Virus record (IMG/VR): IMGVR_UViG_3300011339_000264
Span: 1 to 35,209 of that record
DNA from: a virus
Taxonomy: Duplodnaviria; Caudoviricetes
Reading direction: 5' to 3' (one strand)
Length of the DNA: 35,209 nucleotides
Positions 27 through 19,701 of this stretch are shown piece after piece. Made by a program: the position numbers and the translations under genes. Under the pieces are notes generated by a model, which made no database searches, had not been told where the DNA came from, and saw nothing but the letters and a program-made list of their open reading frames with translations. Numbering within the stretch: position 1 is the stretch's first letter; each line of letters opens with the position of its first letter.

Positions 27-197
27 ATGAAAGACGAAACTTTTAAGCACGTTATTGACGCGCTTTCTATCGTAACGGTAATCGGAACACTGGCGGACAT
101 GCTACCTTCTATTGCTGCCTTGTTCACCATCATCTGGACAGGAATTCGTATCTGGGAAACTGACACGGTCCAGCGCAGGATCAAGAGGAAAGAATAG
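27..197 (+). CDS. Small membrane protein, holin-like (56 aa)
   Basis: ATG at 27 is preferred over the track start at 6. Two hydrophobic segments (ALSIVTVIGTLA, IAALFTIIWTGI) and a basic C-terminus. The stop overlaps the GTG of the next gene. Confidence 0.65.
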   Translation: MKDETFKHVIDALSIVTVIGTLADMLPSIAALFTIIWTGIRIWETDTVQRRIKRKE

Positions 198-529
198 TGC
201 CTTCTACCTCAAAAGCTCAACACAAGTTCATGGCGGCTGTCGCACACTCACCGTCATTTGCCAAGAAAGCTGGCGTTCCGATGAGTGTGGGCAAAGACTT
301 TAACGAGGCCGACAAAGGCCGCAAATTTTCAAAAGGTGGTGATACTATGGCTACAAAGATGAATCCTTTCATGGCAATGATTGCCAAGAAAAAAGCTGGA
401 GCCAAACCTGAAATGCCCATGAAAAAGATGGCAACTGGTGGCTTTGTCCGTGCTGCTGACGGTGTTGCGTCTAAAGGCAAAACCAAAGCCAAGCAGATCA
501 AGATGAAAAGCGGCGGCATGGCCTGCTAA
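197..529 (+). CDS. Small basic Lys/Met-rich protein with three [FM]xxGG motifs; putative internal virion protein
   Basis: GTG start overlaps the upstream TAG. Contains FSKGG, MATGG and MKSGG, plus a C-terminal ADGVASKGKT motif. Confidence 0.75.
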   Translation: MPSTSKAQHKFMAAVAHSPSFAKKAGVPMSVGKDFNEADKGRKFSKGGDTMATKMNPFMAMIAKKKAGAKPEMPMKKMATGGFVRAADGVASKGKTKAKQIKMKSGGMAC

Positions 530-538
530 GGAGTTGAC

Positions 539-1318
539 ATGAAACCACGTAAGTTTGCAGACGAGGGGTTCGTTCGAGAGGGTGAAAACGAAAACATCGA
601 CGACGACACTCGTGCGCGTGCCCGGAAGTTTGTTGAGGGTGACAGCGCCCGTGTGTTTGCAAACCCCGACAGGTTTTCAGGCGCAAAGCCAAAAGTAGTC
701 ACCAAGGAAGAACTTGCCAAGTCTGGCTTGAGCCTGCGCGACTACATGAACCAGCAGCAAGGGCTGACACGGCGTGGGGGCGCAACTGCAATGCCTCGCA
801 CGGGGCAAGCTTCGAGCCCCATGTCCCGTGAAGACCTAATTTCTCAAATCCCACTTGATGCAACTCGAGCGCCGGTTGGCGGAGAGTCCGCCAGCGGTTC
901 CGAATTGGGGCGAAACGTCAGCAATACGCTAAACGCTTTGGCCGTATCTAAAGGCGTTCCAATGGCACAGATAGCAGCGGAAGCAGCTATGGGGACTCGC
1001 GCAGGGAAGGCGCTTAGTGGGCTTATGGGCGGAAAAAAGGCCGCAGAAGTGCAGCGGATTGAGCCCTCGATGTCCACTCTTAGCGCAGCCAAGAGAGCGG
1101 AGCTTGCCGGCGAACTTCGCCGCGGTGCAACACCCACCAAATTTACAAGCCCCAGCAAGCCAACAGCCTCCAAGAGAACTCGCAAGATGAACGACGACGA
1201 AGCAGGTGTGGAGTTCCGTAAAGGCGGCGGGGTCAAGAAGTACGCATCCGGTGGCTCCGTCTCATCCCGTGCAGACGGCATTGCGCAGCGGGGTAAGACT
1301 CGCGGCAAGATGTGCTGA
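539..1318 (+). CDS. Low-complexity protein with xxGG motifs and a C-terminal RADGIAQRGKTRGKMC motif; putative internal virion protein
   Basis: Strong SD (TAAGGAG) before the ATG; 259-aa ORF in operon order. Confidence 0.8.
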   Translation: MKPRKFADEGFVREGENENIDDDTRARARKFVEGDSARVFANPDRFSGAKPKVVTKEELAKSGLSLRDYMNQQQGLTRRGGATAMPRTGQASSPMSREDLISQIPLDATRAPVGGESASGSELGRNVSNTLNALAVSKGVPMAQIAAEAAMGTRAGKALSGLMGGKKAAEVQRIEPSMSTLSAAKRAELAGELRRGATPTKFTSPSKPTASKRTRKMNDDEAGVEFRKGGGVKKYASGGSVSSRADGIAQRGKTRGKMC

Positions 1319-1319
1319 T

Positions 1320-1607
1320 ATGAGAGCCTCCCGTGGCATGGGGGCCATTGACCCCAGCAAGATGCCTACCGGCAAGCGCAAGAAGCGCCGTGACGACACG
1401 GACTTCACGCAGTATGCTGAGGGTGGGGAAGTGAAGTCAAAGGTCAATGAGGCGGGCAATTACACCAAGCCGGGTCTGCGTAAACGGATTTTCAACAGCG
1501 TCAAAGCGGCGGCAATCGTAGGCACGGGCGCTGGGGAATGGTCAGCCAGAAAAGCACAAGTTATGGCTAAACGATATAAGGCCGCAGGCGGCGGGTATAC
1601 AGATTGA
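1320..1607 (+). CDS. DUF5872-like protein, N-terminal half (95 aa)
   Basis: ATG at 1320 lies 1 nt after the upstream stop (the track starts at 1206). Motifs YTKPGLRKRI and GEWSARKAQ..YKAAGGGY. Confidence 0.7.
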   Translation: MRASRGMGAIDPSKMPTGKRKKRRDDTDFTQYAEGGEVKSKVNEAGNYTKPGLRKRIFNSVKAAAIVGTGAGEWSARKAQVMAKRYKAAGGGYTD

Positions 1608-1837
1608 AAGCTCCGCAGCAATCGCTCAAGGACTGGGGCGACCAGAAGTGGCGCACCAAGTCTGGCAAACCGTCTTCCAAGACGGGGGAACGGTATTTGC
1701 CAGAGGCGGCTATCAAAAGCCTGAGCCCTGCCGAGTACGCTGCAACCACGAAGGCCAAGCGTGCTGGTAAAGCCAGCGGAAAACAGTTCGTAGCGCAACC
1801 TAAAGCAATTGCCAAGAAAACAGCAGGGTTCAGATAA
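1604..1837 (+). CDS. DUF5872-like protein, C-terminal half (77 aa)
   Basis: TTG start in a TTGA overlap. Motifs SLKDW..QKW, ERYLP and GKQFVAQP. Confidence 0.7.
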   Translation: MKAPQQSLKDWGDQKWRTKSGKPSSKTGERYLPEAAIKSLSPAEYAATTKAKRAGKASGKQFVAQPKAIAKKTAGFR

Positions 1838-2757
1838 TGACAACTTCAGGCGTCTCTAACTTTGACATGGACTTGAGTGAAGTCATAGAAGACGCATTTG
1901 AACGTGCGGGTTCTGAGCTTCGTTCCGGGTATGACATGCGTACGGCGCGGCGTTCCCTCAACATCATGTTTGCTGACTGGGCCAACCGGGGCATCAACAT
2001 GTGGACGATTGAGCAGGGGTCGTTTGCCCTGACGCAGGGGTTGAACACCTACGCGCTGCCGGTGGACACCGTGGACTTGCTTGAGCATGTCATCCGTACA
2101 AACGCCCACTCGACCTCCAACCAAGCAGACCTGACCATCACACGCATCAGTGTCAGCACCTACGCTACGCTGCCCAACAAGCTGACCCAAGCCAGACCCA
2201 TTCAAGTCATGGTGCAGCGCAACTCAGGCCAGACTTCAGCCACAACACTGACCCTCAACGGGGCCGTGACGGCCACAGCCACCTCTATCACACTGAGTTC
2301 TGTCGTAGGGCTTGCCGCTGCCGGGTACATCAAGGTGGACAGCGAGATCATCTACTACGGCTATATCGTGGGCAATGTCCTGACAGCTTGCTCCAGAGGG
2401 CAGGCAAACACCACCGCAGCCACGCACACGAGCACCACAGCGGTGTATGTATCAAACCCCCCTGCAATCACCGTCTGGCCCACTCCTGATGGCTCCCAGA
2501 CCTACACCTTCGTGTACTGGCGGCTGCGCAGGAACCAGAACGCTGGAGACGGTTCTGACACGATGGATGTTCCGTTTCGGTTTATACCTTGCGTAGCAGC
2601 CGGGTTGGCCTACTACTTGGCGCTCAAGCTGCCCAATGGCATGGAGCGCTTACAGGTTTTGAAGGCACAATACGACGAGGCGTGGCAGTTGGCGCAGGAT
2701 GAAGATAGAGAAAAAGCCGCCGTGCGATTTGTGCCAAGACAGATGTTCATGAGCTAA
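1837..2757 (+). CDS. Head-tail adaptor / tail tubular protein A-like, with an inserted beta-rich domain
   Basis: TAATG coupling. Helical N-terminus (ARRSLNIMFADWANRG), beta middle (ITVWPTPD..YTFVY) and helical C-terminus (GLAYYLA..YDEAW), as in gp11/gp4-type adaptors. Confidence 0.7.
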   Translation: MTTSGVSNFDMDLSEVIEDAFERAGSELRSGYDMRTARRSLNIMFADWANRGINMWTIEQGSFALTQGLNTYALPVDTVDLLEHVIRTNAHSTSNQADLTITRISVSTYATLPNKLTQARPIQVMVQRNSGQTSATTLTLNGAVTATATSITLSSVVGLAAAGYIKVDSEIIYYGYIVGNVLTACSRGQANTTAATHTSTTAVYVSNPPAITVWPTPDGSQTYTFVYWRLRRNQNAGDGSDTMDVPFRFIPCVAAGLAYYLALKLPNGMERLQVLKAQYDEAWQLAQDEDREKAAVRFVPRQMFMS

Positions 2758-2759
2758 TC

Positions 2760-3143
2760 ATGGGCAACAGGTTTGCGTCAGGTAAGAATGCGATAGCAGA
2801 GTGTGACCGCTGCGGGTTTCGCTACAAGCTGAAGGAACTGAAGAAGGAAGTTGTCAAGACCAAAACGTACAACTTGCTGGTGTGCCCAACCTGCTGGACA
2901 CCAGACCAGCCGCAGTTGCAGTTGGGAATGTACCCGGTAGACGATCCGCAGGGCTTGCGTGATCCACGCCGGGACTTGAGCTATGTGGTTTCTGGCTTGC
3001 TGGCAGACGGAAATCCGGGCGAAGGAAGCAGAGTATTTCAGTGGAACTGGAACCCGGTAGGCGGGTCTAGGGCCAACGATGACGGACTGACCCCCAACTA
3101 TTTGGTGGCAGAATTAGAACTTGGCTCAGTTACAGTAACCTAG
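2760..3143 (+). CDS. Zinc-finger (CxxC...CxxC) phage protein
   Basis: CDRC and CPTC pairs; lies in operon order. Confidence 0.75.
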   Translation: MGNRFASGKNAIAECDRCGFRYKLKELKKEVVKTKTYNLLVCPTCWTPDQPQLQLGMYPVDDPQGLRDPRRDLSYVVSGLLADGNPGEGSRVFQWNWNPVGGSRANDDGLTPNYLVAELELGSVTVT

Positions 3144-3151
3144 GAGTTGAT

Positions 3152-3340
3152 ATGGACAAGGCAGACATGAAGCAGGACAAGAAGATGATGGCCGGGGCCG
3201 TGCACAAGCACGAGAAGCGGCTGCACCCCGGCAAACCCATGACCAAGTTTTCCAAAGGCGGTAAGACGGACATGGACATGATGAAGTACGGGCGTGGCAT
3301 GGCTAAAGTAATGAACCAGAAATCTGGTCGCGGAGGCTAA
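3152..3340 (+). CDS. Small basic protein with an FSKGG motif
   Basis: SD TAGGAG; Lys/Met-rich like 197..529. Confidence 0.75.
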   Translation: MDKADMKQDKKMMAGAVHKHEKRLHPGKPMTKFSKGGKTDMDMMKYGRGMAKVMNQKSGRGG

Positions 3341-3341
3341 G

Positions 3342-3578
3342 ATGATCAACAACAAACAAGCAGCGGCCTATGCAAAGCCGCACACCATGTCTGGCAAAGC
3401 CGTGACCGTGGAAGCAAACCCCGGCAAGGGCAAAGACATGAGCATGTTGAACAACGCTCGTGCGTCGATTGGCCGCATCACCAACCAAGAGCAACCCGGC
3501 GTGAAGACATCGGGTATCAAGATGCGCGGCACGGGCGCTGCGACTAAAGGTCTGATGGCACGAGGCCCAATGGCATGA
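3342..3578 (+). CDS. Small basic protein with a C-terminal RGTGAATKG motif
   Basis: SD GGAGG; ATGA overlap with the next gene. Confidence 0.75.
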   Translation: MINNKQAAAYAKPHTMSGKAVTVEANPGKGKDMSMLNNARASIGRITNQEQPGVKTSGIKMRGTGAATKGLMARGPMA

Positions 3579-4237
3579 ACTACGCTGCGTTGGTTTCTGC
3601 GGTTTCCTCCTACACGGAGAACACCTTTCCTACGGTGGACATGAACCTGTTCATCACGCAGGCAGAGAAACGCATCTACAACACCGTACAGATTCCAGCA
3701 CTGCGTAAGAATGTGACGGGTATCACAACGGCGAGTAACAAATACTTGGCCTGCCCTGATGACTTTCTGTCTTCCTATTCTCTGGCGGCAATAGACCCGG
3801 TTACGGGGGCGTACACGTTCCTGTTGAACAAGGACGTAAACTTCATCCGGGAAGCGTACCCCAAGCCAACAACCACAGGGTCACCCAAGTTCTACGCTCT
3901 GTTTGGCCCCGCCGTGGCATCCAGCGTTATCACAACGGAACTCACGTTCCTCATTGGCCCCACTCCAGATGCTGCCTACAGCATGGAGCTTCACTACTAT
4001 TACTACCCGGAGTCCATCGTGACGGCCTCGACCACATGGTTGGGAGACAACTACGACCCTGTGCTGCTGTACGGGACACTGGTTGAAGCCTACACTTACA
4101 TGAAGGGTGAAGCCGACATGATTGGCCTGTATGACGGCAAGTACAAAGAAGCAATGGGACAACTCAAACGTCTGGGTGACGGGCTTGAGCGGCAAGACGC
4201 CTACCGCAGTGGGCAAGCTAGGGTGCCAGTAACATGA
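3575..4237 (+). CDS. Second head-tail adaptor/connector-like protein
   Basis: MNYAAL..FITQAEKRI, G.PKFYA, IGPTPDAAY, LLYGTLVEAY.YMK; same helix-beta-helix layout as adaptor proteins. Confidence 0.7.
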   Translation: MNYAALVSAVSSYTENTFPTVDMNLFITQAEKRIYNTVQIPALRKNVTGITTASNKYLACPDDFLSSYSLAAIDPVTGAYTFLLNKDVNFIREAYPKPTTTGSPKFYALFGPAVASSVITTELTFLIGPTPDAAYSMELHYYYYPESIVTASTTWLGDNYDPVLLYGTLVEAYTYMKGEADMIGLYDGKYKEAMGQLKRLGDGLERQDAYRSGQARVPVT

Positions 4238-4650
4238 GCATCGCCCAAACCCTGACCACATCCTTCAAGCAGCAACTGCTTGAGGCGGTGCATGATTTCT
4301 CCACAGACACCTTCTATATGGCGCTGTACACAGCCAATGCCGATATAGGGGCAGCTACCACCGTTTACACAGCAACGGGGGAGATTACAGGTACTGGCTA
4401 CACCGCTGCAGGTCAGGTGATGACCGGCATCTCAGTCAGTGTCAGCGACACCACCGCCTTTGTAAATTTCAGCAATGTTGTCTGGACTACTGGTGCGTTT
4501 ACAGCACGGGGTGCGCTGATTTACAATTCATCCAAGAGCAACAAATCGGTGGCAGTATTGGACTTTGGCGCGGATAAAACCACTACCTCATCGTTCACCG
4601 TTGTCATGCCAGCTAACACATCCACCGCTGCACTTATAAGGCTACCATGA
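4234..4650 (+). CDS. Minor virion/tail protein (paralog A)
   Basis: ATGA coupling; Thr/Ala-rich beta protein; aligns by eye with 4839..5339. Confidence 0.7.
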   Translation: MSIAQTLTTSFKQQLLEAVHDFSTDTFYMALYTANADIGAATTVYTATGEITGTGYTAAGQVMTGISVSVSDTTAFVNFSNVVWTTGAFTARGALIYNSSKSNKSVAVLDFGADKTTTSSFTVVMPANTSTAALIRLP

Positions 4651-4835
4651 TCACAACCACCAAAGGTCTGATGGACGAAGCCCTGCTGGACAAGCGGGAA
4701 GGCACCGTAGACAACGACAACGAAACCACGACATGGGTTGAATACTGGTTGGACGGCGAATTGGTACACCGTTCTGCACATGTGGCTCTGAAAAATCCCA
4801 TGCTTGCGGGTCTTGAAGCAGCTTCACTAGGATAA
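4647..4835 (+). CDS. Small conserved phage protein (WVEYWLDGELVHRS)
   Basis: ATGA coupling; fills the gap between the two paralogs. Confidence 0.7.
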   Translation: MITTTKGLMDEALLDKREGTVDNDNETTTWVEYWLDGELVHRSAHVALKNPMLAGLEAASLG

Positions 4836-4838
4836 ATC

Positions 4839-5339
4839 ATGGCGAACACGCAATCCCTTTGCACCTCCTTCATGGGCCAGTTGCTCAATGGCGGTCACCA
4901 ATTCGGCACTATCACCCTGACCAGCAGGACTAGCTTAACCGCACCCACAAAAGACACGTTTAAAGCGGCTCTGTACCTTGTCGGGGCCACAATGAACGCC
5001 TCAACCACGGCGTACAGCGCAAGCAACGAAGTCTCTTCAGCTAACTACACAGCGGGTGGCGAAACCATCACCAACGCTAATGTGCCGGTGGCTACCAATG
5101 CTTCAGCCACTGCGGGTGTGGCGTACTGGACACCTTCGGCAAGCATTGTCTATGGGGCAAGTGCAACACCCGTGACCTTCGCTGCTTTTGATGCGGTGCT
5201 GGTCTATAACTCCACGCAGGGTAATACAGCGGTCAGTGTCCACACCTTCAGCAGCCAAACGATCACGGCGGGTGTTTTTACGCTGACTATGCCGACTAGC
5301 TCAACGACCACTGCGCTTCTGCGGTTGTCAACAACCTGA
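4839..5339 (+). CDS. Minor virion/tail protein (paralog B)
   Basis: SD AGGA; shares TSF..QLL, DTF..ALY, YTA.G, YNS and ALLRL with 4234..4650. Confidence 0.7.
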   Translation: MANTQSLCTSFMGQLLNGGHQFGTITLTSRTSLTAPTKDTFKAALYLVGATMNASTTAYSASNEVSSANYTAGGETITNANVPVATNASATAGVAYWTPSASIVYGASATPVTFAAFDAVLVYNSTQGNTAVSVHTFSSQTITAGVFTLTMPTSSTTTALLRLSTT

Positions 5340-5343
5340 TGTC

Positions 5344-5883: not shown

Positions 5884-8112
5884 ATGTCAACATCATATAG
5901 TACGAATCTGGCTCTGGCACTTCCAGCTACGGGGGAACTGTCGGGCACATGGGGCACAACGGTCAACACCAATATCACCAACATGCTCGACGAGGCGTTG
6001 GGGTATCAGGCGTACTCAGCCACAGGGGGCGCAGACACGATTACCATCCCCGACGGCACTACAGGTGTAGCACGGAGTATCTACATCCAGCTTAACGGTA
6101 CAGGCGGCGGCAGTGTGGCGGTTCCTGCAACCAAGACGAAGATGTACTTTGTCTTCAACAACACTTCATCTGCCATCACGTTCAAAGTCACCGGACAGAC
6201 CGGGGTGTCTATCCCTGCTGCGGCAAAGATGGCCCTTGTCAGCAACGGTACAGACGTTATCGTTGCCCAGAACTACTTCGCAGCGTTGACCCTTGGAGCA
6301 GCACTCCCCGTAGCATCTGGCGGCACAGGGCTTACAGCAGGCACATCAGGCGGCGTACTGGCTTACACAGCCACAGGCACATTGGCATCATCTGCTGCAC
6401 TGGCAGCAAGCGCCTTGGTCATTGGCGGCGGGGCTGGTGCGGCTCCAAGCACTACAACCACAGGTACGGGTGTCGTCACAGCCCTCGGCGTCAATACAGG
6501 CACTGCCGGGGCGTTTGTCGTCAACGGCGGGGCACTCGGCACACCCAGCAGCGGCACAGTCACCAACCTGACCGGCACAGCCTCAATCAACATCAACGGC
6601 ACTGTCGGGGCTACAACGCCTACGACGGGGGCTTTTACTACGCTGAGTGCTACGGGTACGGCAACCTTGGGTACAGGTTTGGTTAGTTACGCGTTGGGTG
6701 GTGGCTCTGCCGCCGCCGCTGGTTTAACAGATAAAGATATAACACTCCGCGCATGGTCAGTATCATCCGGAACCAATGACTATTCGGGCGACTTGATACT
6801 ACAGTCAGGAGTTGGTACTGGTAATGGTAGCGGGAAACTAGGCAGTGTAATTATTAAAGCGGGTAATTCAGGGGCAAGTTCTTCAATCCTTGGCGCTTTA
6901 ACCACTATCGGCACATTCTCCTCCACCGGCCTAGCAGTCACCGGGACGCTGAGTGCTACGGGGCGGTCAGGCGTAACCATGTCGGGACAGACTTCTGCCG
7001 TAAGTCTTGGTCAGGTAAGTACCGACCCAACGTATGGATTGCTATCATTTAATGGAGCATTTGCAGCAACTACGTTAACTGGTATCTGGGGAGGTGCAGG
7101 TAGTCCAGATATGATAATCGGCGTCCCTACTGGCGGCAGCATATACAGCAGAGTAAACAATAGCACGGTCACCCTTCTCTCCTCCACCGGACTAGCAGTC
7201 ACCGGGACGCTGAGTAGCACCCTTGGCGCAAACCTTGCTACTAGCAGTGGGAGTGTTGGTGTTGGTAATTCTAGCCCCCAAGCACTACTTCATGTTGGCT
7301 CTGTAGTTGAAGCACCCGGTTTTGGTACTGCAAGTCAAATGTGTTATGTCAACGGCACAGTTCAACCAGAGGTATTGGTGCGAGAAACAACAAATAATGT
7401 TGTTGTGTCAATGTTTGCAGATTCAACTTCTGGGGCAATAAGAACAGCAACAAATCATCCACTTATCTTTTATACCAACAACACAGAACGCGCCCGTATC
7501 GGTTCTAACGGCTATAGTAAATTCAGCAATGTTGGAACATATAATGATACGGCAGGAAATTATCACGAATTTAGAGGCGACACTCAAAATAGTTATGTTG
7601 TAATTACAGCTTGCACCAACGCTACGCCTCTCTCTGAATTTATACAAGATTTTCGTTTTTCAGCGGCAACGCCTAATGATGGTAATGCAAGGTTTTGGAG
7701 TTGTACGGATGCAACCGCTGAAAGGGCTTATATCCGTTCTAACGGTGGTCTATCAAACTATTCAGCAAATGACACAAACTTGTCAGACCGCAGAGAGAAA
7801 ACAAACTTTGCCCCTGCCACTTCTTATCTTGACAAAATTTGTGCAATACCCGTTCAGACCTTCAACTACATTGACCAAAACCATGGAGAAGATGGTGGTC
7901 TGACATTAGGTGTCGTTGCCCAAGACGTTCAAGCGGTTGCTCCTGAGTTGGTGACTGAAAGCAATTGGGGTAGCAAAGAAGAACCAAAAATGCGCTTGTC
8001 AATCTATCAAACAGATTTGCAGTATGCGCTGATGAAGTGCATCCAAGAACAACAAGCCCTTATCACCCAACTGACCGCCCGTGTCGCTCAACTTGAAAGC
8101 AAACCATCATGA
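5884..8112 (+). CDS. Tail fibre protein with a C-terminal intramolecular chaperone (peptidase S74)
   Basis: SD AGGAG. N-terminal virion anchor (L.LPATGE.SGTWG..N.N), Gly/Thr-rich shaft, SDRREK autocleavage motif at 7783, G.VAQDV..V.PELV and a terminal coiled coil. Confidence 0.9.
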   Translation: MSTSYSTNLALALPATGELSGTWGTTVNTNITNMLDEALGYQAYSATGGADTITIPDGTTGVARSIYIQLNGTGGGSVAVPATKTKMYFVFNNTSSAITFKVTGQTGVSIPAAAKMALVSNGTDVIVAQNYFAALTLGAALPVASGGTGLTAGTSGGVLAYTATGTLASSAALAASALVIGGGAGAAPSTTTTGTGVVTALGVNTGTAGAFVVNGGALGTPSSGTVTNLTGTASININGTVGATTPTTGAFTTLSATGTATLGTGLVSYALGGGSAAAAGLTDKDITLRAWSVSSGTNDYSGDLILQSGVGTGNGSGKLGSVIIKAGNSGASSSILGALTTIGTFSSTGLAVTGTLSATGRSGVTMSGQTSAVSLGQVSTDPTYGLLSFNGAFAATTLTGIWGGAGSPDMIIGVPTGGSIYSRVNNSTVTLLSSTGLAVTGTLSSTLGANLATSSGSVGVGNSSPQALLHVGSVVEAPGFGTASQMCYVNGTVQPEVLVRETTNNVVVSMFADSTSGAIRTATNHPLIFYTNNTERARIGSNGYSKFSNVGTYNDTAGNYHEFRGDTQNSYVVITACTNATPLSEFIQDFRFSAATPNDGNARFWSCTDATAERAYIRSNGGLSNYSANDTNLSDRREKTNFAPATSYLDKICAIPVQTFNYIDQNHGEDGGLTLGVVAQDVQAVAPELVTESNWGSKEEPKMRLSIYQTDLQYALMKCIQEQQALITQLTARVAQLESKPS
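6917..7215 (+). repeat. 38-bp direct repeat (6917-6954 and 7178-7215, 37/38 identical); a linked 17-bp repeat at 6640-6656 and 6946-6962
   Basis: TCTCCTCCACCGG(C/A)CTAGCAGTCACCGGGACGCTGAGT occurs twice; ACGCTGAGTGCTACGGG occurs twice. Confidence 0.95.
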
Positions 8113-10277: not shown

Positions 10278-12368
10278 ATGCCTTTACAGAAAATTACCTT
10301 AAAAAGTGGCGTGAACCGCGAAAACACGCGGTACGCTAACGAAGGGGGGTACTACGAGTCGGATAACGTGCGTTTCCGTCAGGGAGCCCCCGAGAAGATA
10401 GGCGGGTGGCTTCGCATTTCTGCAAATACGTTCTTGGGCGTGTGCCGTTCCCTTTGGAACTGGGTTACGTTAGGCTATCAAAACCTTATTGGGGTTGGGA
10501 CAGACCTCAAGTTCTACATATCCAACGGCGGTGCGTATTACGACATCACTCCGACCCAGACTGTCCACACACTGACCGGCCCGTTTACCACAAACGGCAC
10601 TACCACGGTCACAGTCACGGATGCCGGTGGGGGATACATCAATAACAGCTACGTGACGTTTACAGGCGGCACTGCCGTTGGCGGGGTACTCATAACTGGG
10701 GAGTACCTGATAACGTACTCTTCAGGTTCCACTTACACCATCACTGTCGCAACTGCACCAACAGCAGCGTCTGGCGGCGGGACAGTCTATGCCGTGTACC
10801 AGATCAACCCCGGCCCAAGTTACGCGGCCCCCCTGTCTGGATGGGGCTCTGGCGCTTGGGGTTCTGGAACTTGGGGCAACAGCGCAAGTTCTGTGGAAGC
10901 TCTGCGGATTTGGAACCAATTCAACTTTGGTGAAGACCTGCTGTATGGCCCAAGGGGTGGGCCGCTGTACTACTGGGATGCCACTATTGGTTACCTAGCA
11001 CCCACGGTCACCATGACAATTGCCAACCCTTGCGTTGTCACCACCACACTAAATCTGCCTGACTTGACTCCAATCGTCTTTGAGACCACCGGGGCATTGC
11101 CTACGGGCTTGCTGGTAGGCACAACCTACTACACCCGGTATGTATCAGCCACCACGTTCAATCTATCCTTGACCCCCGCAGGGGCGCTCATCATCACTTC
11201 GGGTAGTCAGTCGGGTGTGCAGACCATATCCCAGAGAGGCGTTTTGTTGTCTGCGTTGGCAACAGCAAGCAATGTCCCGCTGAGCCAGATATTCTTCCTT
11301 GTTTCTGATGCCAGCCGGTTTGTCATTTGCTTTGGAACGAACGACATTGGCTCCTCCACAGTCAATCCGATGCTTGTGCGCTGGTCAGATCAAGAAGACC
11401 CCGCCCTTTGGACGCCTTCCATTACTAATCAGTCAGGCAGTATTACCCTGTCCCACGGTTCCACCATCGTCACTGCAATACAGAGCAAGCAAGAGATCGT
11501 GATCTTTACAGATTCTGCGCTGTACTCACTTCAGTATCTCGGGCCGCCCTATGTTTGGGGGTCACAGCTACTTGCAGACAACACCTCTCTTGCTGGCCCT
11601 AATGCCGTGACGCTGGCGGCGGGGACCATTTACTGGATGGGCGTAGACAAGTTCTACAAGTACGACGGACGGCTGCAAACCCTCAACTGTGACTTACTCA
11701 GGTATGTCTACAACGACATTGATCGCACGCAGTTTGAGCAGGTCTATGCGTCCACCAATGAGGGTTTCAGTGAGGTGTGGTGGTTCTACCCCAGTAACGG
11801 CTCGACAACCAACGACAGCTATGTGGTCTACAACTACCTAGAGAATGTCTGGTACTACGGCTCTATGGCCCGGACGGCGTGGCTGGACAGCGGCCTCCAA
11901 GAATACCCTGTTGCAGCCACCTACAGCAACAACCTTGTCCAGCACGAACTGGGTGTGGATGATGGTGTAGCCGCCACCCTTGCGCCAATCAATGCGTTCA
12001 TAACCTCATCCCAGTTTGATATTGGCGACGGCCACAACTTTGCGTTTGTCTGGAGGATGCTGCCTGACCTGACCTTCAACGGCTCCACCGCCGGGACAAC
12101 ACCCAGCCTGACCATGCAACTCCTGCCTTTGCAGAACTCTGGCTCGGGATACAACAACCCCAAGTCAGTCGGCGGCAACAGCAGCAGCGCAGAAGGAACA
12201 GTCACAGCCACCCAGACCTACCCCATTGATTTGGACACCTACAACGGGCAGTTGAACATCCGGGTCAGAGCGCGGCAGATGTCCATGAAGATCAGTTCAA
12301 ACACCCTTGGCACACAGTGGCAGATGGGCGCTCCAAGAATTGACATCAGAAATGATGGGCGTAGGTAA
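10278..12368 (+). CDS. Tail nozzle / tail tubular protein B-like (DNA stabilisation protein)
   Basis: 696-aa beta-rich protein; NVRF..G.PEKIGGW, VRWSDQED, EVWWFYP and YVVYNY..WY.G...RTAW motifs; lies before the ejection genes. Confidence 0.75.
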   Translation: MPLQKITLKSGVNRENTRYANEGGYYESDNVRFRQGAPEKIGGWLRISANTFLGVCRSLWNWVTLGYQNLIGVGTDLKFYISNGGAYYDITPTQTVHTLTGPFTTNGTTTVTVTDAGGGYINNSYVTFTGGTAVGGVLITGEYLITYSSGSTYTITVATAPTAASGGGTVYAVYQINPGPSYAAPLSGWGSGAWGSGTWGNSASSVEALRIWNQFNFGEDLLYGPRGGPLYYWDATIGYLAPTVTMTIANPCVVTTTLNLPDLTPIVFETTGALPTGLLVGTTYYTRYVSATTFNLSLTPAGALIITSGSQSGVQTISQRGVLLSALATASNVPLSQIFFLVSDASRFVICFGTNDIGSSTVNPMLVRWSDQEDPALWTPSITNQSGSITLSHGSTIVTAIQSKQEIVIFTDSALYSLQYLGPPYVWGSQLLADNTSLAGPNAVTLAAGTIYWMGVDKFYKYDGRLQTLNCDLLRYVYNDIDRTQFEQVYASTNEGFSEVWWFYPSNGSTTNDSYVVYNYLENVWYYGSMARTAWLDSGLQEYPVAATYSNNLVQHELGVDDGVAATLAPINAFITSSQFDIGDGHNFAFVWRMLPDLTFNGSTAGTTPSLTMQLLPLQNSGSGYNNPKSVGGNSSSAEGTVTATQTYPIDLDTYNGQLNIRVRARQMSMKISSNTLGTQWQMGAPRIDIRNDGRR

Positions 12369-12685
12369 TGGCACAAAAGAACGTAGTAGCCCCCCGGCTA
12401 CCTAGCCCCCCACAGGAGTATGACCCTGTTTACATGAACCAACTGTTGAGTTTGTTGCGTCTGTACTTCAACCAACTCGACAACGCAGGGCCGATGGCAG
12501 GTTCTACACAGATTAACGGAACCGCTGTAGTATCGGGTTTGAGCTTCTTCCCTACGTCTGGCACAGACCCCAGCCTGCCAACAGACGCTGACTTTGCCAA
12601 TTTGCGAATCGGGGATGTGTACAGAGACACCCAGAACGGGGTGATGAGCAACAACCAAACGCTTAAAATAAAGACCGCACTATGA
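12368..12685 (+). CDS. Small tail-associated protein
   Basis: TAATG coupling; LPSPP.EYD...NQL...LRLYFNQLD motif. Confidence 0.7.
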   Translation: MAQKNVVAPRLPSPPQEYDPVYMNQLLSLLRLYFNQLDNAGPMAGSTQINGTAVVSGLSFFPTSGTDPSLPTDADFANLRIGDVYRDTQNGVMSNNQTLKIKTAL

Positions 12686-14973
12686 GCCTAAATCAATTAG
12701 CCAACCACATGTCGGCTCAAGGCCGGGGTCCAGACTCCACTCTTGTGCACATGTCTCCTCGTGAGGTGTCAGGACTGCAGAGTCTGGCTATGGCACACGG
12801 CGGGACTCTGACCATTAACCCGCAAACGGGACTGCCCGAAGCAGGCTTCCTCGACAGCCTGCTACCCACGCTTCTTGGCGGTGCAGCTACTTACCTTACT
12901 GGGGGCGCAATTACCCCCATGATGGCAGCTATGGGTGTCGGCGGTCTGACGGCGTTGACCAGCAAAGACCTCGGCAAAGGGCTGATGGCGGGCCTTGGTG
13001 CTTATGGCGGTAGCGGCATCATGGAAGGATTAGCTGGGTTTGGTACGGGGGCGTTGTCGGCTGAAGCAGGAAAAGCGGCGGTACCATCTGGGATGGATGC
13101 ACTAGGCTATGAGGCAGAACAGCTATCTCAAAATGCCGTTGCATCTAAACTGGCAAACGCTTCTTACTACGACAAAATAGCCGCCGGGGCATCAAAAGCC
13201 ATGAGCGAACCAATGAACGCACTGAGCGCAATTGGCGGCGGCAGCAAACTCAAAGGCGCGGCGATGCTTGGCGCTCCGTTGCTGTCAGCCCTTTCAACGC
13301 AAGAAGCTACGCCAGCCCCGACGTTCCAGCAGACACAGTTTGACCCCCGAGCGGCCAACATAAATATGCGCAGAAGCCAACTTGCGTATCAACCAGACAC
13401 AGGCAGTTCTGCACAACGCAGGTACTTCACGCCCATGACAATCGACCAATACGGCGCTGATGGCGGCTTTGTTGCAGATGGCGGGATACAGCATTTTGCC
13501 AGCGGTGGGGTTCCTCTTGACCCCACCTACGACTACTCGGGCTACGGCAGGAAAAACACAACGCGACCCGTTCCGGTAGTGCAGCCTAAAGCCCTAGCCA
13601 AGCCCGACTTTGTGGGCGCTGACGGCAAAACGTACCGCTACGACCCCATGAAAAAAAGCTGGTACGTCATCAAAGACGCTCCAGCAAAAACCAACCCCGG
13701 CGTCGAAGTCCTGATGGGCGGTGAAGGCGGAGCAGGGGAGTTTGGTGGCAAGGGCGCGGGGACTTATGGTGGCAACCCTGAAAGTATTACTGGGGGTTTT
13801 CTATCGTCCGTTATTGGTACGCAGCTTCCAGCCCCGGTAGTTGAGAAAAGTACTTTTACTCCCGCTGCAATAGCAGAAGCCCAAGCCGCCCAAGAAAAAG
13901 CAGCAGCAGAAGCGGGGCGTACAGCAGCAACCATTGAAGGGCTGCAAAAAGACCCCGAAACGGGGCTAGCCCCCGGTGAATTGGCAGGTAGCCCGCAACA
14001 AAGTAGTCTAAGTAATGGATACTCCCCCGGAACACCCGGTAGTGCAAGCCGAGAAAGTGCTACTGCTGAAAAAAGCAATATAGATGCAGCCCCCGCTGCA
14101 GCAAGCAATGCGGGGTTAGCTGCACTAGCAAATATTCAACAGGATGTTGCAGCCCGAGCCGCTGAAGTTGGGAAAACACCCGGAGCGTTTGCAGAAGAGG
14201 GCCTTGCGGGAATTGCGGCACAAGCACAAACGGCTGCGGATAACGCCCGAGAGGCCAGCATGTCGGTTGGTGCCCCTGCCGCTGCCCCTGCCCCTGCCCC
14301 AATCGGACCTAACGCACTAGTCGGCGGCCCTACCGTTACTGGCGTAGAAGAAGAGGCTCCGGGTGCGTCACCAATCGGGCCATCCTCGGTTACAGGCCCT
14401 GCACTTGGTGCAGGCCCGAGTGGCCCAGAGGGTGCCAGCCCAGAGGGCCCCGGCGGAGGTGGTGTAAGCGGCCAGAGTAGCGATACGAGTGGTGGCCCGA
14501 GTGGTGGCCCAGAGGGCCCCGGCGGAGGTGGTGTAAGCGGCCAGAGTGGTGAGGGCGCAGGTGCGGGAGCGGGCGCAGGTGAGGGTGCGGGAGCAGGCGC
14601 AGGTGAGGGTGCGGGTCCAGAGGGCCCCGGCGGCGACTGGCGTTACGGCGGCATGGTAGGCCAGTACGCCCAAGGCGGGCTCGGCTCCCTCGGCGGCTAC
14701 TCGGATGGCGGCAGGCTCCTGCGCGGCCCCGGTGATGGTGTGTCGGACCATATCCCTGCAACGATTGGTCGTGGTCGGCAACCTGCGCGACTTGCCGATG
14801 GAGAGTTTGTAGTCCCGGCCCGGATTGTGTCTGAACTGGGCAACGGCTCAACGGAAGCAGGCGCACGTGCGCTGTATAAAATGATGGACCGCATCCAAGC
14901 CAACCGCCGTAAGACTACTGGCAAAAACAGGGTCGCTGTAGATTCCAAAGCGCACAAATATCTTCCCGCATAA
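12682..14973 (+). CDS. Putative internal virion/ejection protein 1 (Gly-rich hydrophobic segment, xxGG tags, TMP-like GEFV module)
   Basis: 763 aa; position after the nozzle gene; conserved-looking termini around a low-complexity middle. Confidence 0.7.
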   Translation: MSLNQLANHMSAQGRGPDSTLVHMSPREVSGLQSLAMAHGGTLTINPQTGLPEAGFLDSLLPTLLGGAATYLTGGAITPMMAAMGVGGLTALTSKDLGKGLMAGLGAYGGSGIMEGLAGFGTGALSAEAGKAAVPSGMDALGYEAEQLSQNAVASKLANASYYDKIAAGASKAMSEPMNALSAIGGGSKLKGAAMLGAPLLSALSTQEATPAPTFQQTQFDPRAANINMRRSQLAYQPDTGSSAQRRYFTPMTIDQYGADGGFVADGGIQHFASGGVPLDPTYDYSGYGRKNTTRPVPVVQPKALAKPDFVGADGKTYRYDPMKKSWYVIKDAPAKTNPGVEVLMGGEGGAGEFGGKGAGTYGGNPESITGGFLSSVIGTQLPAPVVEKSTFTPAAIAEAQAAQEKAAAEAGRTAATIEGLQKDPETGLAPGELAGSPQQSSLSNGYSPGTPGSASRESATAEKSNIDAAPAAASNAGLAALANIQQDVAARAAEVGKTPGAFAEEGLAGIAAQAQTAADNAREASMSVGAPAAAPAPAPIGPNALVGGPTVTGVEEEAPGASPIGPSSVTGPALGAGPSGPEGASPEGPGGGGVSGQSSDTSGGPSGGPEGPGGGGVSGQSGEGAGAGAGAGEGAGAGAGEGAGPEGPGGDWRYGGMVGQYAQGGLGSLGGYSDGGRLLRGPGDGVSDHIPATIGRGRQPARLADGEFVVPARIVSELGNGSTEAGARALYKMMDRIQANRRKTTGKNRVAVDSKAHKYLPA
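14438..14640 (+). repeat. Gly/Pro/Glu coding repeats: a perfect 41-bp duplication (14438-14478 and 14507-14547) plus GEGAGAGA units
   Basis: GCCCAGAGGGCCCCGGCGGAGGTGGTGTAAGCGGCCAGAGT occurs twice. Confidence 0.9.
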
Positions 14974-14982
14974 GGACGCATC

Positions 14983-17694
14983 ATGGCAGACGCAACACAA
15001 ACAATCGTAAATCAGGTTGGGTATAACCCAGCAGTTGCTCCGTATTTGCAGGAGAACATGGCGCAAGCACGAGCGCTGACCTACAACTACAAACAAGAGC
15101 CAGTTTTAGATGCCAATGGACAGCCGGTTATTGGCCCAGACGGAAGACCCGTAACAAAGAACATCATCGGCGCAAACGGGATGCCCGAGATTGAGAGCTT
15201 TAGAGAACCTGAAAGGTACGGGTACGAACGGCAAGCTGAGTTTTCAGACCTGCAGCAGCAGGCCATGCAGGGCGCTAGGGACATGGTGGGCGGTGGAGCG
15301 CAAGTAGCTAACCAGAACGCACAAAACATTATGAGCACTGCGGCAAATAACGCCGCAGGGTCTACATACACGGGGGGTAATTTTGGTAACCAATACGCGG
15401 CCCCCGCCAATCTTGGTTACACAGCCCAAAATGCAGCAGCGCAACAGGCAGGAATTGCCACGCTACCTACGGGGGAGACGGCTACAGCGGCCACAATGGG
15501 TAGAACCCCGACAAGTACAGCGGCAATTGGGCAGGCCCAGCAAGATCAGATGGCTCCAGAGATGGCTGCCCAAACCGGGACAGCGGCAACTGGGATTGCC
15601 GCGCTTAACAGAGCCACACCTCAAATGACTGCGCAAGCAGCCAATGCAGCCACACTAGGTGCTGCCCCGGAAGCCCTATCAACTCAGTTTGCAGGGCCGA
15701 GAGATGTGAGCGCGGAGCGAGTAGGGGCAGAACGTATAAACGCACCCAACCTGCGCGACATGAGCATGACTGCGGCAAAAGATATTGCCGGTTCAACAGT
15801 TGAATCCAGAGACATAAAAGCTGCCAAAGACACTGGTTTGGCAAGTCTTAAAAACTACCAGATGGGGCCAGCGGAACGGGTGGAAACAAAGAGTTTTGCC
15901 CAACCCGGCTCGGCGGATGCATACATGTCGCCTTACATGCAGAGTGTGGTGGGCATCCAGCAACGCGAAGCGCAACGAGCCGCAGATGTTGCTTCTACAG
16001 GACGTAGAGGTGAGCAGACCAGAGCAGGTGCTTTTGGGGGTTCCCGAGCAGCCATCATGGACGCTGAAGCTGCCCGTAATCTTGCCACTCAACAGGGTGA
16101 CATCCAAGCGCAGGGTTTGCAGGAAGCATATAAACAAGCGCAGCAGCAGTTCAATACGGAACAAGGCCAAGGTCTACAGGCCCAGACCGCCAATCAACAA
16201 GCCGGGTTGACCGTAGGCCAACAGAATCTTGCTGCTAATTTAGGCGTTCAGCAACTGGGCGAAGGACAGATCAACCTTCAAACCAAACTCGCCAATCTAA
16301 ACAATGAGCAGCAAGCGGCGGTTCAAAACGAATCCAACAGGCTTCAAGCACAGGGGTTAACCGCAGGCCAAGCCATGCAGGCTGCGCTTGCTAATCAGGG
16401 CGTGCAGCAGCAGGCCAATGTGCAGAACCTGAGTGCAGGTCTCCAAACGCAAGGTCTCGGTGCGCAGACCGGGCTGCAAGCACAGCAGTCCAATCAGCAG
16501 TACAACATGCAGGGCCAGCTTGCCAATCAGCAGTCCAATCTTACGGCGCAGCAGGCCAACCAAGGCATGGGCTACAACACAGCCCTGCAAAACGCACAGT
16601 TGCGTCAGCAGACTGAGTTAGCCAACCAAGGACAACGCGGGCAGTACGGGCTTCAGCAGGGGCAGTTTAATCAAGCGGCCAACATGCAGACCTCTGCACA
16701 AGCCCAAGAAGCGCAGCGGCAGAATCAGGCAATGGCGGGGCAGTACGGGTTGTCCGACACGGGTAATCAGCAACAGACCAACATGGCAAACGCTGGCTAC
16801 CAGCAACAAACTGGGATGGCAAATCTTGCAAATCAGCAAGAAGCGCAACGGCAAAATCAAGCCGTTCGCAGTCAGTACGGGCTTGCCAATCTTGCCAACA
16901 GACAGCAAACGGAGCAGGCTAACACCGGGTATCAACAGCAGACGGGGATGGCGAATCAAGCGCTGGCTGGTCAGTATGGGATGCAGCAGGGCACTATGGA
17001 TCAGCAGGCCGCTATGCAGACAGCGGCGAATAGGCAAGCAGCCGGGATGTACGGTGCACAAGCCCAAAACGAACGGGCGCAGTACAACGCCACCAACCAG
17101 CAGCAAACAGCACTTGCCAATCAAGCGGCAGGGAATAGAGCCAGTGAGTTTGGCGCTGGGCAGGGGCTGACTTCAGCAGGAACGGCTGCACAGTACGGGC
17201 AAGCGGCCAACCAACTGAACGAACAATCCGGGCAGTTTGGCGCTAACTTTGGTTTACAGGGGCAGCAAGCCGCCATGCAGGGCGCTACGGGGCTGTCCAA
17301 TATTGCAGGGCAGGGGTACAACCAAGGTGTGCAAACGAACCAACTGCTGGCTGGCTACGGCAATCAGCAACAAAACGCGGAGCAGCAACGGCTAAGCACG
17401 CAGTACCAAGACTTCTTGAACGAGCAGAACATGCCGTACAAGCAGCTTGGGTTTATGGCGAACACCGCCAGTGCAGCGCCCACAGCCAATCTGGGCAGCA
17501 CCATGTACCAAGCAACTCCCAGCGCATTCAACCAGATAGCCGGGTTGGGCACGGCAGCAGCGGGTGCGTTTAACGCTGCGGGCGGGTTTGGCTCTAAAGC
17601 AACCGGCGGTATGGTTGGGCGCTATGCCAAGGGGGGTCTGATACGATCACGCCCACAAGGTCTTGTTGCGCTGGCTATCCACAGCATGGCATAA
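14983..17694 (+). CDS. Gln/Asn/Ala-rich putative ejection (DNA pilot/tube) protein
   Basis: SD TAAGGA; core YMSPYMQSVV..GAFGGSR; 11-residue periodic Gln-rich C-terminal half. Confidence 0.7.
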   Translation: MADATQTIVNQVGYNPAVAPYLQENMAQARALTYNYKQEPVLDANGQPVIGPDGRPVTKNIIGANGMPEIESFREPERYGYERQAEFSDLQQQAMQGARDMVGGGAQVANQNAQNIMSTAANNAAGSTYTGGNFGNQYAAPANLGYTAQNAAAQQAGIATLPTGETATAATMGRTPTSTAAIGQAQQDQMAPEMAAQTGTAATGIAALNRATPQMTAQAANAATLGAAPEALSTQFAGPRDVSAERVGAERINAPNLRDMSMTAAKDIAGSTVESRDIKAAKDTGLASLKNYQMGPAERVETKSFAQPGSADAYMSPYMQSVVGIQQREAQRAADVASTGRRGEQTRAGAFGGSRAAIMDAEAARNLATQQGDIQAQGLQEAYKQAQQQFNTEQGQGLQAQTANQQAGLTVGQQNLAANLGVQQLGEGQINLQTKLANLNNEQQAAVQNESNRLQAQGLTAGQAMQAALANQGVQQQANVQNLSAGLQTQGLGAQTGLQAQQSNQQYNMQGQLANQQSNLTAQQANQGMGYNTALQNAQLRQQTELANQGQRGQYGLQQGQFNQAANMQTSAQAQEAQRQNQAMAGQYGLSDTGNQQQTNMANAGYQQQTGMANLANQQEAQRQNQAVRSQYGLANLANRQQTEQANTGYQQQTGMANQALAGQYGMQQGTMDQQAAMQTAANRQAAGMYGAQAQNERAQYNATNQQQTALANQAAGNRASEFGAGQGLTSAGTAAQYGQAANQLNEQSGQFGANFGLQGQQAAMQGATGLSNIAGQGYNQGVQTNQLLAGYGNQQQNAEQQRLSTQYQDFLNEQNMPYKQLGFMANTASAAPTANLGSTMYQATPSAFNQIAGLGTAAAGAFNAAGGFGSKATGGMVGRYAKGGLIRSRPQGLVALAIHSMA

Positions 17695-17703
17695 GGAATC
17701 AAA

Positions 17704-19701
17704 ATGTTTGATGATCGAAACAGTGGGTTGGCCGGGGTAGCTACTGACGCAAGTCTGATTAGCATGCTTGCCGGGATGAAGCCCGATGCTCGGCAGCGCT
17801 ACGCAGCAGAGCACTCTGATGACATCAACGTAGTCATCATGGCTAAGTTGGTGAGCGATGTAGCCAACAAACTCGATGTTGCAGAAAAAGGAAATCAAGG
17901 CGCACCGGCCCCCACCGTTTTGTCGCAGACGCTTGCAGCAATAAATCCGCAGTCGGCGCAAGGTATGCCACAAGGTATGCCACAAGGTATGCCACAAGGT
18001 ATGCCACAAGGTATGCCACAAGGTATGCCACAAGGTATGCCACAACAGGCCGTGCCACAACAGGCCGTGCCACAACAGGCCATGCCACAACAGGCTGCGC
18101 CGCCACAGCAAGCCCCACAACCGGCCATGCGGGCACCCCAAGGCCAAACTCGAATGGCGGCAAACGGCGGCTACATGGACTCCCGCCTGCCCGAAGAGAT
18201 GGGCATAGGCGCACTACCCGAACGTAGCCTGTCTAACATGGCGGACGGCGGGATTGTTGGCTTTAACGAAGGCGGAGATGTTCAGCGGTTTCAATTTGGG
18301 GGGACACCCAAACCCCGACCTATGTACCCCGGCATGATTGCGCAGGAGGGGGCGGGGTTGTTGCCGTCCACGACTGGCTACGAAGGCATGGGCATGCTGG
18401 AGTTCATACAGAAATTTGGGGTTGATGCGTACAACAAAATCAAAAATGCCATTCCCGGCGAAAGCACAGAAGAACGCTTGGCGCGGCAGAAACGCGAAGT
18501 TTACGAAGGCAGTGTCTCAGGGCAGCGGGATAAAGCAATGGCGGAAGTAGATAAACCAACCCCCGTTGATTCAATGACACTGCCCCCACGCCCACTTGGC
18601 CCCCTTAGTGCAGGCGCGGCACCGCCGTACGACCCCGCTACGGCAACACGCCGAGATCAGTATGTAAACAAAAACACTGGCCCCGGTGCTGGTCCCGGTG
18701 CTGGTCCCGGTGCTGGTCCCGGTGCTGGTCCCGGTGCAGCCCCCCGTGCGGCTACTGGCGCTGCACCCGTGCAACAGCAGGAAGATTACGGCGCACTATT
18801 TAACCGCATCAGGGGCGGCATGCCCGACGCCCGCGCCTCCATGCCGAAAGAAATTAAAGAAATGGGCGACTTGCGAGAAGCCCAAGCAAACAAAGAGCTT
18901 GCATCCGAAGAGAATGCGAAAGCGGGTTTAGCGTCCTTGCTGGGCAAGCGGGAAACGCGTATTGGCGAACGTGAAAAACGTCTTGCAGACAAGAGCAGCA
19001 ACGACATCAACATGGCACTCATTGACGCGGGATTGGCAATGGCGCAGTCCGTCAAACCGGGTTTTGCAGGAATCGCCGAGGGTCTTACCACAGGCGCAAA
19101 ACGCTTCGCTGAAGAGTCCCGTCTGACAGAAGCAGCGCGTCAGAAAATTGAAGAAGCACGCGATGCACACGACGACTTGAAATTCAATCGTGAAGACATG
19201 TCCCGCAGACAAATCCTAGCCGCGCAAGGCAAGATCACCGAGGCTAAAGTTGCGGTTAAAAAAGACGTTGTTGACTACTTGGCCAAAGATAGAGACATCA
19301 GCACCAAAGTGGCGGGGCATTTATTTGACGCGGAGGCCGCAAGAATTGCAGAAACACAGAAGCAACGGTTCCAAGCGGGCGAAAACGTACTCAACAGGGC
19401 CAACACGCTGAGCGCAGCGGGTATAAGCGCAAACGCATCGACAGCAGCAAAATTAGACATGCTAGAAAAACTAGGCGCGGCTAAGCCTGACAGTCCGTTG
19501 TACAAAGGCTACTTAATGACGGTGCAAGAAGGCCAAGAGCCAAAAATGTACGCTGATTACCTGACAAGAAGAGACGACCCCCTGAAGGGTGAAGACTTCA
19601 AAAAAATGTATCCCACGTTTGAGCTGTACAAAGCAGGTATGTCTGGCGGTGGTGGGGGTAACTTTGTGACGCCCCCGGCAGGAACAACAGCGCTAAAATA
19701 G
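17704..19701 (+). CDS. Putative internal virion/ejection protein 3
   Basis: SD TAAGGA; xxGG cluster, low-complexity repeats and a helical C-terminal half. Confidence 0.7.
   Translation: MFDDRNSGLAGVATDASLISMLAGMKPDARQRYAAEHSDDINVVIMAKLVSDVANKLDVAEKGNQGAPAPTVLSQTLAAINPQSAQGMPQGMPQGMPQGMPQGMPQGMPQGMPQQAVPQQAVPQQAMPQQAAPPQQAPQPAMRAPQGQTRMAANGGYMDSRLPEEMGIGALPERSLSNMADGGIVGFNEGGDVQRFQFGGTPKPRPMYPGMIAQEGAGLLPSTTGYEGMGMLEFIQKFGVDAYNKIKNAIPGESTEERLARQKREVYEGSVSGQRDKAMAEVDKPTPVDSMTLPPRPLGPLSAGAAPPYDPATATRRDQYVNKNTGPGAGPGAGPGAGPGAGPGAAPRAATGAAPVQQQEDYGALFNRIRGGMPDARASMPKEIKEMGDLREAQANKELASEENAKAGLASLLGKRETRIGEREKRLADKSSNDINMALIDAGLAMAQSVKPGFAGIAEGLTTGAKRFAEESRLTEAARQKIEEARDAHDDLKFNREDMSRRQILAAQGKITEAKVAVKKDVVDYLAKDRDISTKVAGHLFDAEAARIAETQKQRFQAGENVLNRANTLSAAGISANASTAAKLDMLEKLGAAKPDSPLYKGYLMTVQEGQEPKMYADYLTRRDDPLKGEDFKKMYPTFELYKAGMSGGGGGNFVTPPAGTTALK
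17959..18087 (+). repeat. Tandem repeat: (CAAGGTATGCCA)x7 followed by (CAACAGGCCRTGCCA)x3
   Basis: Encodes (QGMP)7 followed by QQAVP QQAVP QQAMP. Confidence 0.95.
18679..18738 (+). repeat. Tandem repeat (GGTCCCGGTGCT)x5, near-perfect
   Basis: Encodes (GPGA)5. Confidence 0.95.

Follow-up and report, generated by a model that had tools for sequence, protein, structure and literature searches.

In the 35-kb partial phage genome IMGVR_UViG_3300011339_000264, analyzed over the entire record (hereafter the window), seven open reading frames (ORFs) carry copies of a short peptide motif, [FYM]xxGG, referred to below as the tag. We found the motif to be a real, selected signal. It is restricted to two gene blocks, the small basic proteins encoded between the capsid and adaptor genes and the ejection-position proteins encoded after the nozzle gene, and in both it stands at module joints. 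On balance we judge it probable that the motif is a maturation cut site, X↓A-x-G-G (the arrow marks the cut), on proteins predicted to be inside the particle.

Occurrence of the motif in the window and in related phages

An earlier note on the window had listed 20 copies of the motif, and all 20 were recovered where it placed them, on the + strand of the seven ORFs. Fifteen fit [FYM]xxGG, but five do not (YGADGG 13450, FVADGG 13468, WRYGG 14638, KATGG 17596, and MAANGG 18154); four strict matches in the same ORFs had not been listed (12892, 12931, 15283, and 19639). Across 32 window ORFs, [FYM]xxGG was found 23 times compared to 8.9 expected from within-protein shuffles (maximum 19 in 2000). 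F, Y, or M stood three residues before GG at 19 of 59 GG in the seven ORFs (background 9%, p 6e-7, for a set of ORFs picked post hoc), and at 4 of 54 in the remaining 25. The copies do differ in codon use, with 9 distinct GG hexamers among 15 copies, and this divergence ruled out a DNA-level repeat as their origin, although no DNA repeat finder was run. Tandem copies are 8-9 residues apart as claimed, 8 being the commonest spacing. Other statements of the note had to be amended. MAHGG 12790 is not conserved as a tag, and the primase ORF28410 on the - strand has FMHGG at 30761, although replication proteins were said to lack the motif. The seven proteins are also only partly unrelated, since ORF197 and ORF539 have a common GG..ADG.A..GKT module and ORF12682 and ORF14983 a common 12-residue stretch. 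No copy at all is present in the 2841-aa ORF19762.

Because the seven ORFs had been chosen post hoc, the test was made on 80 related loci, in which 1046 ORFs were called, 980 were sorted by position and 748 were left after dereplication; these ORFs are homologs, so the counts are not independent. In after-nozzle ORFs of at least 200 aa, [FYM]xxGG occurred 257 times compared to 86 expected, and the strict form [FYM][AS]xGG was found 171 times in 125 after-nozzle ORFs compared to 17 expected, a 10-fold excess. The small ORFs before the adaptor gene had 21 copies (3.2 expected), with 7 of the strict form in 15 such ORFs (0.5 expected). Nozzle proteins were depleted, with 4 copies compared to 40 expected, and a single strict copy in 42 nozzles (6.5 expected). 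Tail proteins had been described as having chance-like hits only; this held for the strict form (28 compared to 25 expected in 397 tail and lysis ORFs), but not for the loose pattern, which was mildly raised (156 compared to 108, above all 60 shuffles).

The control pattern [LIVW]xxGG occurred 133 times in after-nozzle ORFs, where 152 were expected. The enrichment of [FYM]xxGG was 3.15-fold, compared to 1.3- to 1.7-fold for other spacings, and the second glycine is needed, [FYM]xxG-nonG being found at 0.90 times expectation. The motif logo reads [YMF]-[AS]-x-G-G-x-[VLI], with the residues after GG (V, I, or L) also selected; in HTVC023P-type phages the second position is N, K, or Q. The motif was found in DSL-LC04, HTVC023P, and Pra-JY27, and the CRP-902 ORFs examined have essentially none. 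Based on the shuffles and the control patterns, chance or a Gly-rich background was ruled out as its source. The enrichment at ejection positions and the chance level of the strict pattern in tail ORFs support the view, proposed in the earlier note, that the motif is selected and specific to a class of presumably internal proteins. No description of the motif was found in the open-licence literature, most subscription papers lying outside that search, and a PDB sequence search gave no match to the tandem tag.

Predicted cut site and the GE domain

Two phage proteins suggest where a cut would fall. In T5, a cleavage mapped by mass spectrometry (MS) to the bond after R1127 splits the tape measure pb2 into pb2* and pb2C, and the cryo-electron microscopy model of pb2* starts at T1085 and spans 42-43 residues (Linares et al., 2023, PMC10038345, available part). 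The sequence at the cut is R1127↓AEGG, one of only two A-x-G-G in the 1219 residues of pb2, so the cut comes after the first residue of the motif; R-A-x-G-G is retained in two distant T5-like tape measures. In crAss001, gp45 is an MS-proven cargo protein with a portal-bound part resolved at residues 425-552 and a tail-bound part at 214-245 (PMC10172136, available part). Residue 425 is the A of N424↓AFGG, and the resolved portal-bound part starts exactly there. A-x-G-G starts at 8 of the 842 positions of gp45; if a resolved part could begin at any of these positions, the chance that one of the two starts meets one of the 8 sites is about 2% by our own arithmetic. The resolved pieces, 420 Å apart, each lie inside one predicted fragment (207-260 and 425-559), and none of the four quoted MS peptides spans a site. 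All of 21 gp45 homologs keep GG; they vary at the first position, and 18 of them have A or S as the next residue. We predict a cut after the first residue of the motif because the T5 cut and the start of the ordered part of gp45 share that register. The gp45 pieces may then be separate fragments and not one portal-threaded chain.

The tape measure gpH of phage lambda has FATGG at 733 and YATGG at 778. Cutting at F733↓A734 would give 79.8 and 12.5 kDa, compared to about 78 and about 14 kDa reported, and the motif would name the bond as well as a candidate catalyst for a cleavage whose site and catalyst were stated to be unknown in 2025 (PMC12617516). No further mapped cut was found in the available parts of PMC3706429, PMC2248197, PMC10386132, PMC8954989, PMC10713586, and 10.1101/2025.06.11.659172.

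The earlier note had cited adenovirus, African swine fever virus (ASFV), and C39 peptidases as precedent for cutting after GG. Such a cut, by an adenain/ASFV-like or C39 protease, would yield polyprotein products or ubiquitin-like GG ends, and it would fit that GG is the sole invariant part of the motif and that both glycines are needed. The site consensus of adenain and the ASFV protease is [MIL]-x-G-G, however, and [MIL]xGG was found 164 times compared to 141 expected, just 1.16-fold, in the set where [FYM]xxGG reached 3.15-fold. No clan CE cysteine protease or C39 peptidase/transporter was matched by Pfam among 30 window ORFs and the 57 ORFs of the complete relative G004, many of which have no family. 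The T5 cut falls three bonds before the end of the first glycine pair, and V, I, or L is selected past GG. Register and T5 cut position disagree with the precedent, and we regard a cut after GG as very improbable.

The domain behind the last tag of ORF12682, here termed the GE domain (Table 1), is a candidate reader or cutter of the tags, as suggested by its conservation and position. Asp689, Glu708, one Val, and one Gly were invariant in 97 aligned rows, and the domain was found in 14,358 protein clusters. It is homologous to modules at the ends of tape measures, its profile matching those of 8zdo (mycobacteriophage Douge, E 7e-13) and 8rk3 (Pseudomonas phage JBD30, E 1e-5). The DSL-LC04 version matched 1278 phage records at E<=1, mostly tape measures among the 40 matches listed, and the tag was immediately upstream of the module in 8 of 8 matches fetched. 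Within the family, X[AS]xGG was found shortly upstream in 48 of 62 GE domains, a count made without a shuffled control. A tag and GE module were also observed in SSM2_012 of Synechococcus phage S-SM2, a T4-like cyanophage, beside the baseplate hub gene.

Co-occurrence of domain and tags was assessed in 231 loci, of which 79 had at least 7 kb after the nozzle gene and 53 were left after dereplication. The 37 loci with a GE domain had 54 tags in other ORFs compared to 12.5 expected, and 31 of them had at least one. The 16 loci counted as lacking the domain had 4 tags (5.9 expected); one of them, L078, was miscounted, as the domain is in its record. The GE domain was also absent from four CRP-902-clade records, one of them complete.

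Two AF2 monomer models were mediocre (pLDDT 55 and 68, the GE domain having 68). Three fold searches with GE-domain models gave no match (best Z 3.2, Foldseek E>7), a result that is no evidence of a new fold and leaves room for the crAss fold. No PF25725 Pfam match was found in 34 family members, a PDB sequence search with the single GE domain returned nothing, and a search for lambda-type homologs returned 100% copies only. An ESM feature score of 0.84 between the GE domain and the crAss cargo C1 domain is a lead only.

If the motif is a cut site, the large proteins would, once loaded into the prohead, be cut into an ejected body and anchors or linkers, and the small basic ones would yield short basic peptides. 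The GE domain, with its two carboxylates, might bind the tag as its own first strand and read or cut copies on other proteins. This is the most speculative step, to which we give about half the probability of the cut itself; the models being mediocre and without a solved-fold match, the two-carboxylate catalyst is proposed from conservation and position only. A GE domain acting as reader or cutter would explain why an ordinary prohead protease was absent in the searches. More generally, and as a tentative and rather unlikely extension, an undescribed miniature Asp/Glu module might cut X↓A-x-G-G in cis in tape measures and in trans on every tagged head protein, replacing the prohead protease. 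Such a module would be common to the tape measures of long-tailed phages, crassvirus cargo, and the ejection proteins of abundant aquatic podoviruses, and would cover the unexplained lambda gpH and T5 pb2 cuts.

Several points weigh against the cut-site reading and the proposed role of the GE domain. Both the cut and the virion location in the window phage are predicted from other phages and from gene position. The first position is F, Y, or M in the window, but R in T5 and N, H, K, A, or R in crassviruses, and the phage's own family shows no enrichment of K or R at this position. A tandem spacing of 8-9 residues is as compatible with multivalent binding as with cutting, and the same is true of the last tag of ORF197 homologs, whose GG is followed by 2-4 residues in 48 of the 59 complete ones. 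The gp45 coincidence is much less surprising if the motif is a domain edge. In the available part of their paper the gp45 authors treat the chain as intact and do not read 425 as a cut, and the T5 paper, in its available part, gives the equivalent position a metallopeptidase motif that acts on the cell wall, not on protein (PMC10172136; PMC10038345). The word stem 'cleav' is absent from the main text and from one of the two supplement files of PMC10172136. The GE domain is small, about 70-80 residues. A small profile from 4 proteins aligned with lambda gpH over the stretch that runs from its tag to the end of GEFV, at a weak 13.9 bits, and gave no match to T5 or gp45, homology to T5 being undetected. 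For the GE domain and the crAss cargo domain, hhalign gave a non-significant 0.6% (E 0.09), with GE in register. Finally, the other 15 domain-less loci, all retrieved with the CRP-902 query, belong to a single clade (CRP-901/902 type), which makes the joint absence of domain and tags one event.

Tagged proteins and gene layout

Table 1. Positions of the tagged ORFs, their domains, and the bordering genes in the window.
Feature	Position	Strand	Length	Tags and remarks
ORF197, small basic protein	197..529	+	110 aa	FSKGG 326, MATGG 428, MKSGG 503; last residue Cys
ORF197, portable N-terminal module	197-325	+	43 residues	PHROG 16759, 22033, 25121 across residues 1-44
ORF539, basic protein	539..1318	+	259 aa	Tandem FRKGG 1214 and YASGG 1241, then conserved basic C-terminal module
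ORF1320, small basic protein	1320..1607	+	95 aa	YAEGG 1413 joins two modules; part after the tag is PHROG 17747
ORF3152, small basic protein	3152..3340	+	62 aa	FSKGG 3248
Nozzle/stabilisation protein	10278..12368	+		PHROG 3287; marks start of ejection-gene block; motif depleted
ORF12682, first ejection-position protein	12682..14973	+	763 aa	FASGG 13495, YAQGG 14665, YSDGG 14698; looser 13450, 13468, 14638
ORF12682, conserved N-terminal domain	12682..12861	+		GRGxD..L.H..P.E
GE domain, ORF12682 residues 674-755	14701..14946	+		Asp689 (14746) and Glu708 (14803) invariant; follows YSDGG
ORF14983, Gln/Ala-rich ejection-position protein	14983..17694	+	903 aa	Tandem KATGG 17596 and YAKGG 17623, then 22-residue basic tail
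ORF17704, ejection-position protein	17704..19701	+	665 aa	MADGG 18238, FNEGG 18262, FQFGG 18289; looser MAANGG 18154
ORF19762, giant polyvalent-type protein	19762..28287	+	2841 aa	LPD38; HExxH at 25216; no tag

In ORF197 homologs the strict tag begins at residue 44 in 55 of 70 and at 39-56 in 57; of the remaining 13, 10 fit when Gly is permitted at the x positions. Each homolog has 2-5 tags, and 52 of the 59 complete ones end in Cys. Predicted cutting of the C-terminal tags would release peptides of 6-9 residues. The earlier idea of a polyprotein is therefore apt for the large proteins only, since in the small ones the last tag is so close to the end. Fragmentation of scaffold and DNA-condensing proteins occurs in T4 and adenovirus, and cutting of the ORF197 type would resemble it.

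The position of the tag exactly at module ends, as at residue 44 of ORF197, would also be expected of a structural joint only, that is, a turn or short strand that starts portable modules and is spread by recombination without a partner in trans; some copies do accompany longer common stretches. We find this improbable, as the motif is kept in unrelated modules with unalignable, low-complexity flanks and divergent codons, and tags are at chance level in loci without the GE domain.

An uncut loading or docking tag is possible, if doubtful. It would bind a repeated site in the prohead interior (portal, scaffold, capsid wall, or GE domain) and bring cargo and the small basic DNA-neutralising proteins into the particle, with tandem copies giving avidity. 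The 8-9-residue tandem spacing, the several tags per ORF197 homolog with the last one adjoining the C-terminus, the gp45 tag that begins a portal-bound domain in the available part of its description, MAHGG near the end of one relative's portal, and the lack of a Pfam prohead protease in the complete relative G004 agree with docking. The sole mapped event at the motif is, however, the T5 cut; tape measures of long-tailed phages, which stay out of the head, carry the same tag; and one ejection-position protein, the giant ORF19762, lacks it. Should its role be loading and not cutting, the tag would offer a handle of five residues by which proteins could be packed into phage heads. An address may at the same time be a cut site, and in the T4 capsid targeting sequence the two can coincide.

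The ORF197 N-terminal module was also found N-terminally in proteins of phiKZ-like phages, RaK2, CBB, and phAPEC6, some of which are labelled virion structural. None of 8 jumbo-phage proteins examined has a GG tag after this module, and several have Glu-ending motifs at or past the place of the tag (no statistical test). Loading may in fact be directed by this module, and the cut site may have been exchanged between phage types. A C-terminal Cys was found in 10 of 24 small ORFs of five relatives, and the small basic proteins have a common GG..ADGxAxxGKTKG module; this conserved Cys at the end might serve for cross-linking or be modified.

Among the ejection-position proteins, the N-terminal Asp/Glu domain of ORF12682 has a tag upstream in many relatives, whereas in the window its start is Met-Ser. 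Homology of this domain to the GE domain was rejected, the resemblance being visual only and hhalign negative. ORF14983 consists at 15600-17300 of long Gln/Ala/Asn-rich quasi-repeats, and the protein at the same position has 929 aa in relative G001 and 274 aa in G004, which suggests a length-variable channel protein. At the 18238 copy of ORF17704, A-x-G-G was invariant in 15 of 15 aligned rows. The giant protein of the window has an HExxH zincin-like motif, as do 3 of the 4 giants called in related phages. This putative zincin would be a minor candidate for the tag cutter; it looks like the polyvalent-protein peptidase, and a link to the tags was not found.

The source phage is uncultured and likely short-tailed, and it resembles HTVC023P, DSL-LC04, and Pra-JY27. 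By nozzle protein the closest cultured phages are DSL-LC04, MinM2/Pra-JY27, CRP-901/902, and HTVC023P/027P (31-36%), in a nozzle-gene family with an estimated ~3000 IMG/VR stretches besides these cultured members. The + strand from 1 to 28287 holds the small basic ORFs, two SU10-type adaptors, tail fibre and lysis genes, the nozzle protein, three large low-complexity ORFs, and the LPD38 protein; from 28410 on, primase, helicase, and others are on the - strand. In five near-complete relatives the capsid gene precedes the small basic ORFs, and the large ORFs occupy the place of the ejection-protein genes of short-tailed phages. From gene position and PHROG labels, the tagged proteins are predicted to travel inside the particle.

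Further features were found in the window and its relatives. The tail fibre ORF5884 has an ordinary C-terminal Peptidase_S74 self-cleaving chaperone domain at 7780-7960 (Pfam E 8.5e-14). A GroES-like gene (G004:C1:60496-60897) adjoins the scaffold-position gene, as in cultured relatives. The portal-position protein of relative G002 (G002:C1:24538-27054) has MAHGG 17 residues before its end, while three other portals lack it.

Comparison with known systems

The likeness of the motif to the sites of adenovirus protease, ASFV pS273R, and C39 leaders consists of the two glycines; it differs from their consensus sites in the spacing of the hydrophobic residue and the predicted side of the cut, and no such enzyme was matched by Pfam in the window or in G004. 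Only 9 of 210 copies begin within 10 residues of the N-terminus, and the window copies are internal, in tandem, or near the C-terminus, unlike C39 leaders.

T5 pb2 has the same peptide at its cut, R↓A-E-G-G, followed by a short acidic module. It has one site in one tail protein, compared to about 15 sites in seven head-block proteins of the window phage; its first residue is R and not F, Y, or M, its module was undetected by the GE profile, and the motif is not named in the available part of PMC10038345. The crAss001 cargo gp45 (Bayfield et al., 2023, PMC10172136; PDB 7QOG; PF25725) is internal as well and has six motif-like A-x-G-G copies, and its portal-bound domain starts at the motif, with GE-V-V in register with GE-F-V of ORF12682. 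It differs in lacking a Pfam or significant profile match, in the intact chain described by its authors, and in belonging to another phage order.

Lambda gpH/gpH* and the GPGTGTSD-type tape measures (TIGR01541) have a tag and then a GE module, clear in JBD30 8rk3 and Douge 8zdo and weak in lambda. The cut of gpH lies near its tag and module. The JBD30 authors guessed a different cut site (1066). Lambda-type phages have the GE module on the tape measure, but the window phage has it on an ejection-position protein.

The AxE mark of SPN3US (PMC10052503) is likewise one short motif on unrelated internal proteins, often repeated. There, a dedicated prohead protease cuts after Glu and mostly removes N-terminal propeptides, whereas the window motif is internal and C-terminal. 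The motif logo lacks the conserved Glu that precedes the cut in T4, phiKZ, and SPN3US, and no prohead protease was found by Pfam among the 57 ORFs of G004, whose head block consists of GroES-like, unnamed, and capsid genes. Altogether, the motif is very unlikely to be an adenain or C39 site, and would work like the common maturation marks of the internal proteins of SPN3US or T4, minus their defining Glu.

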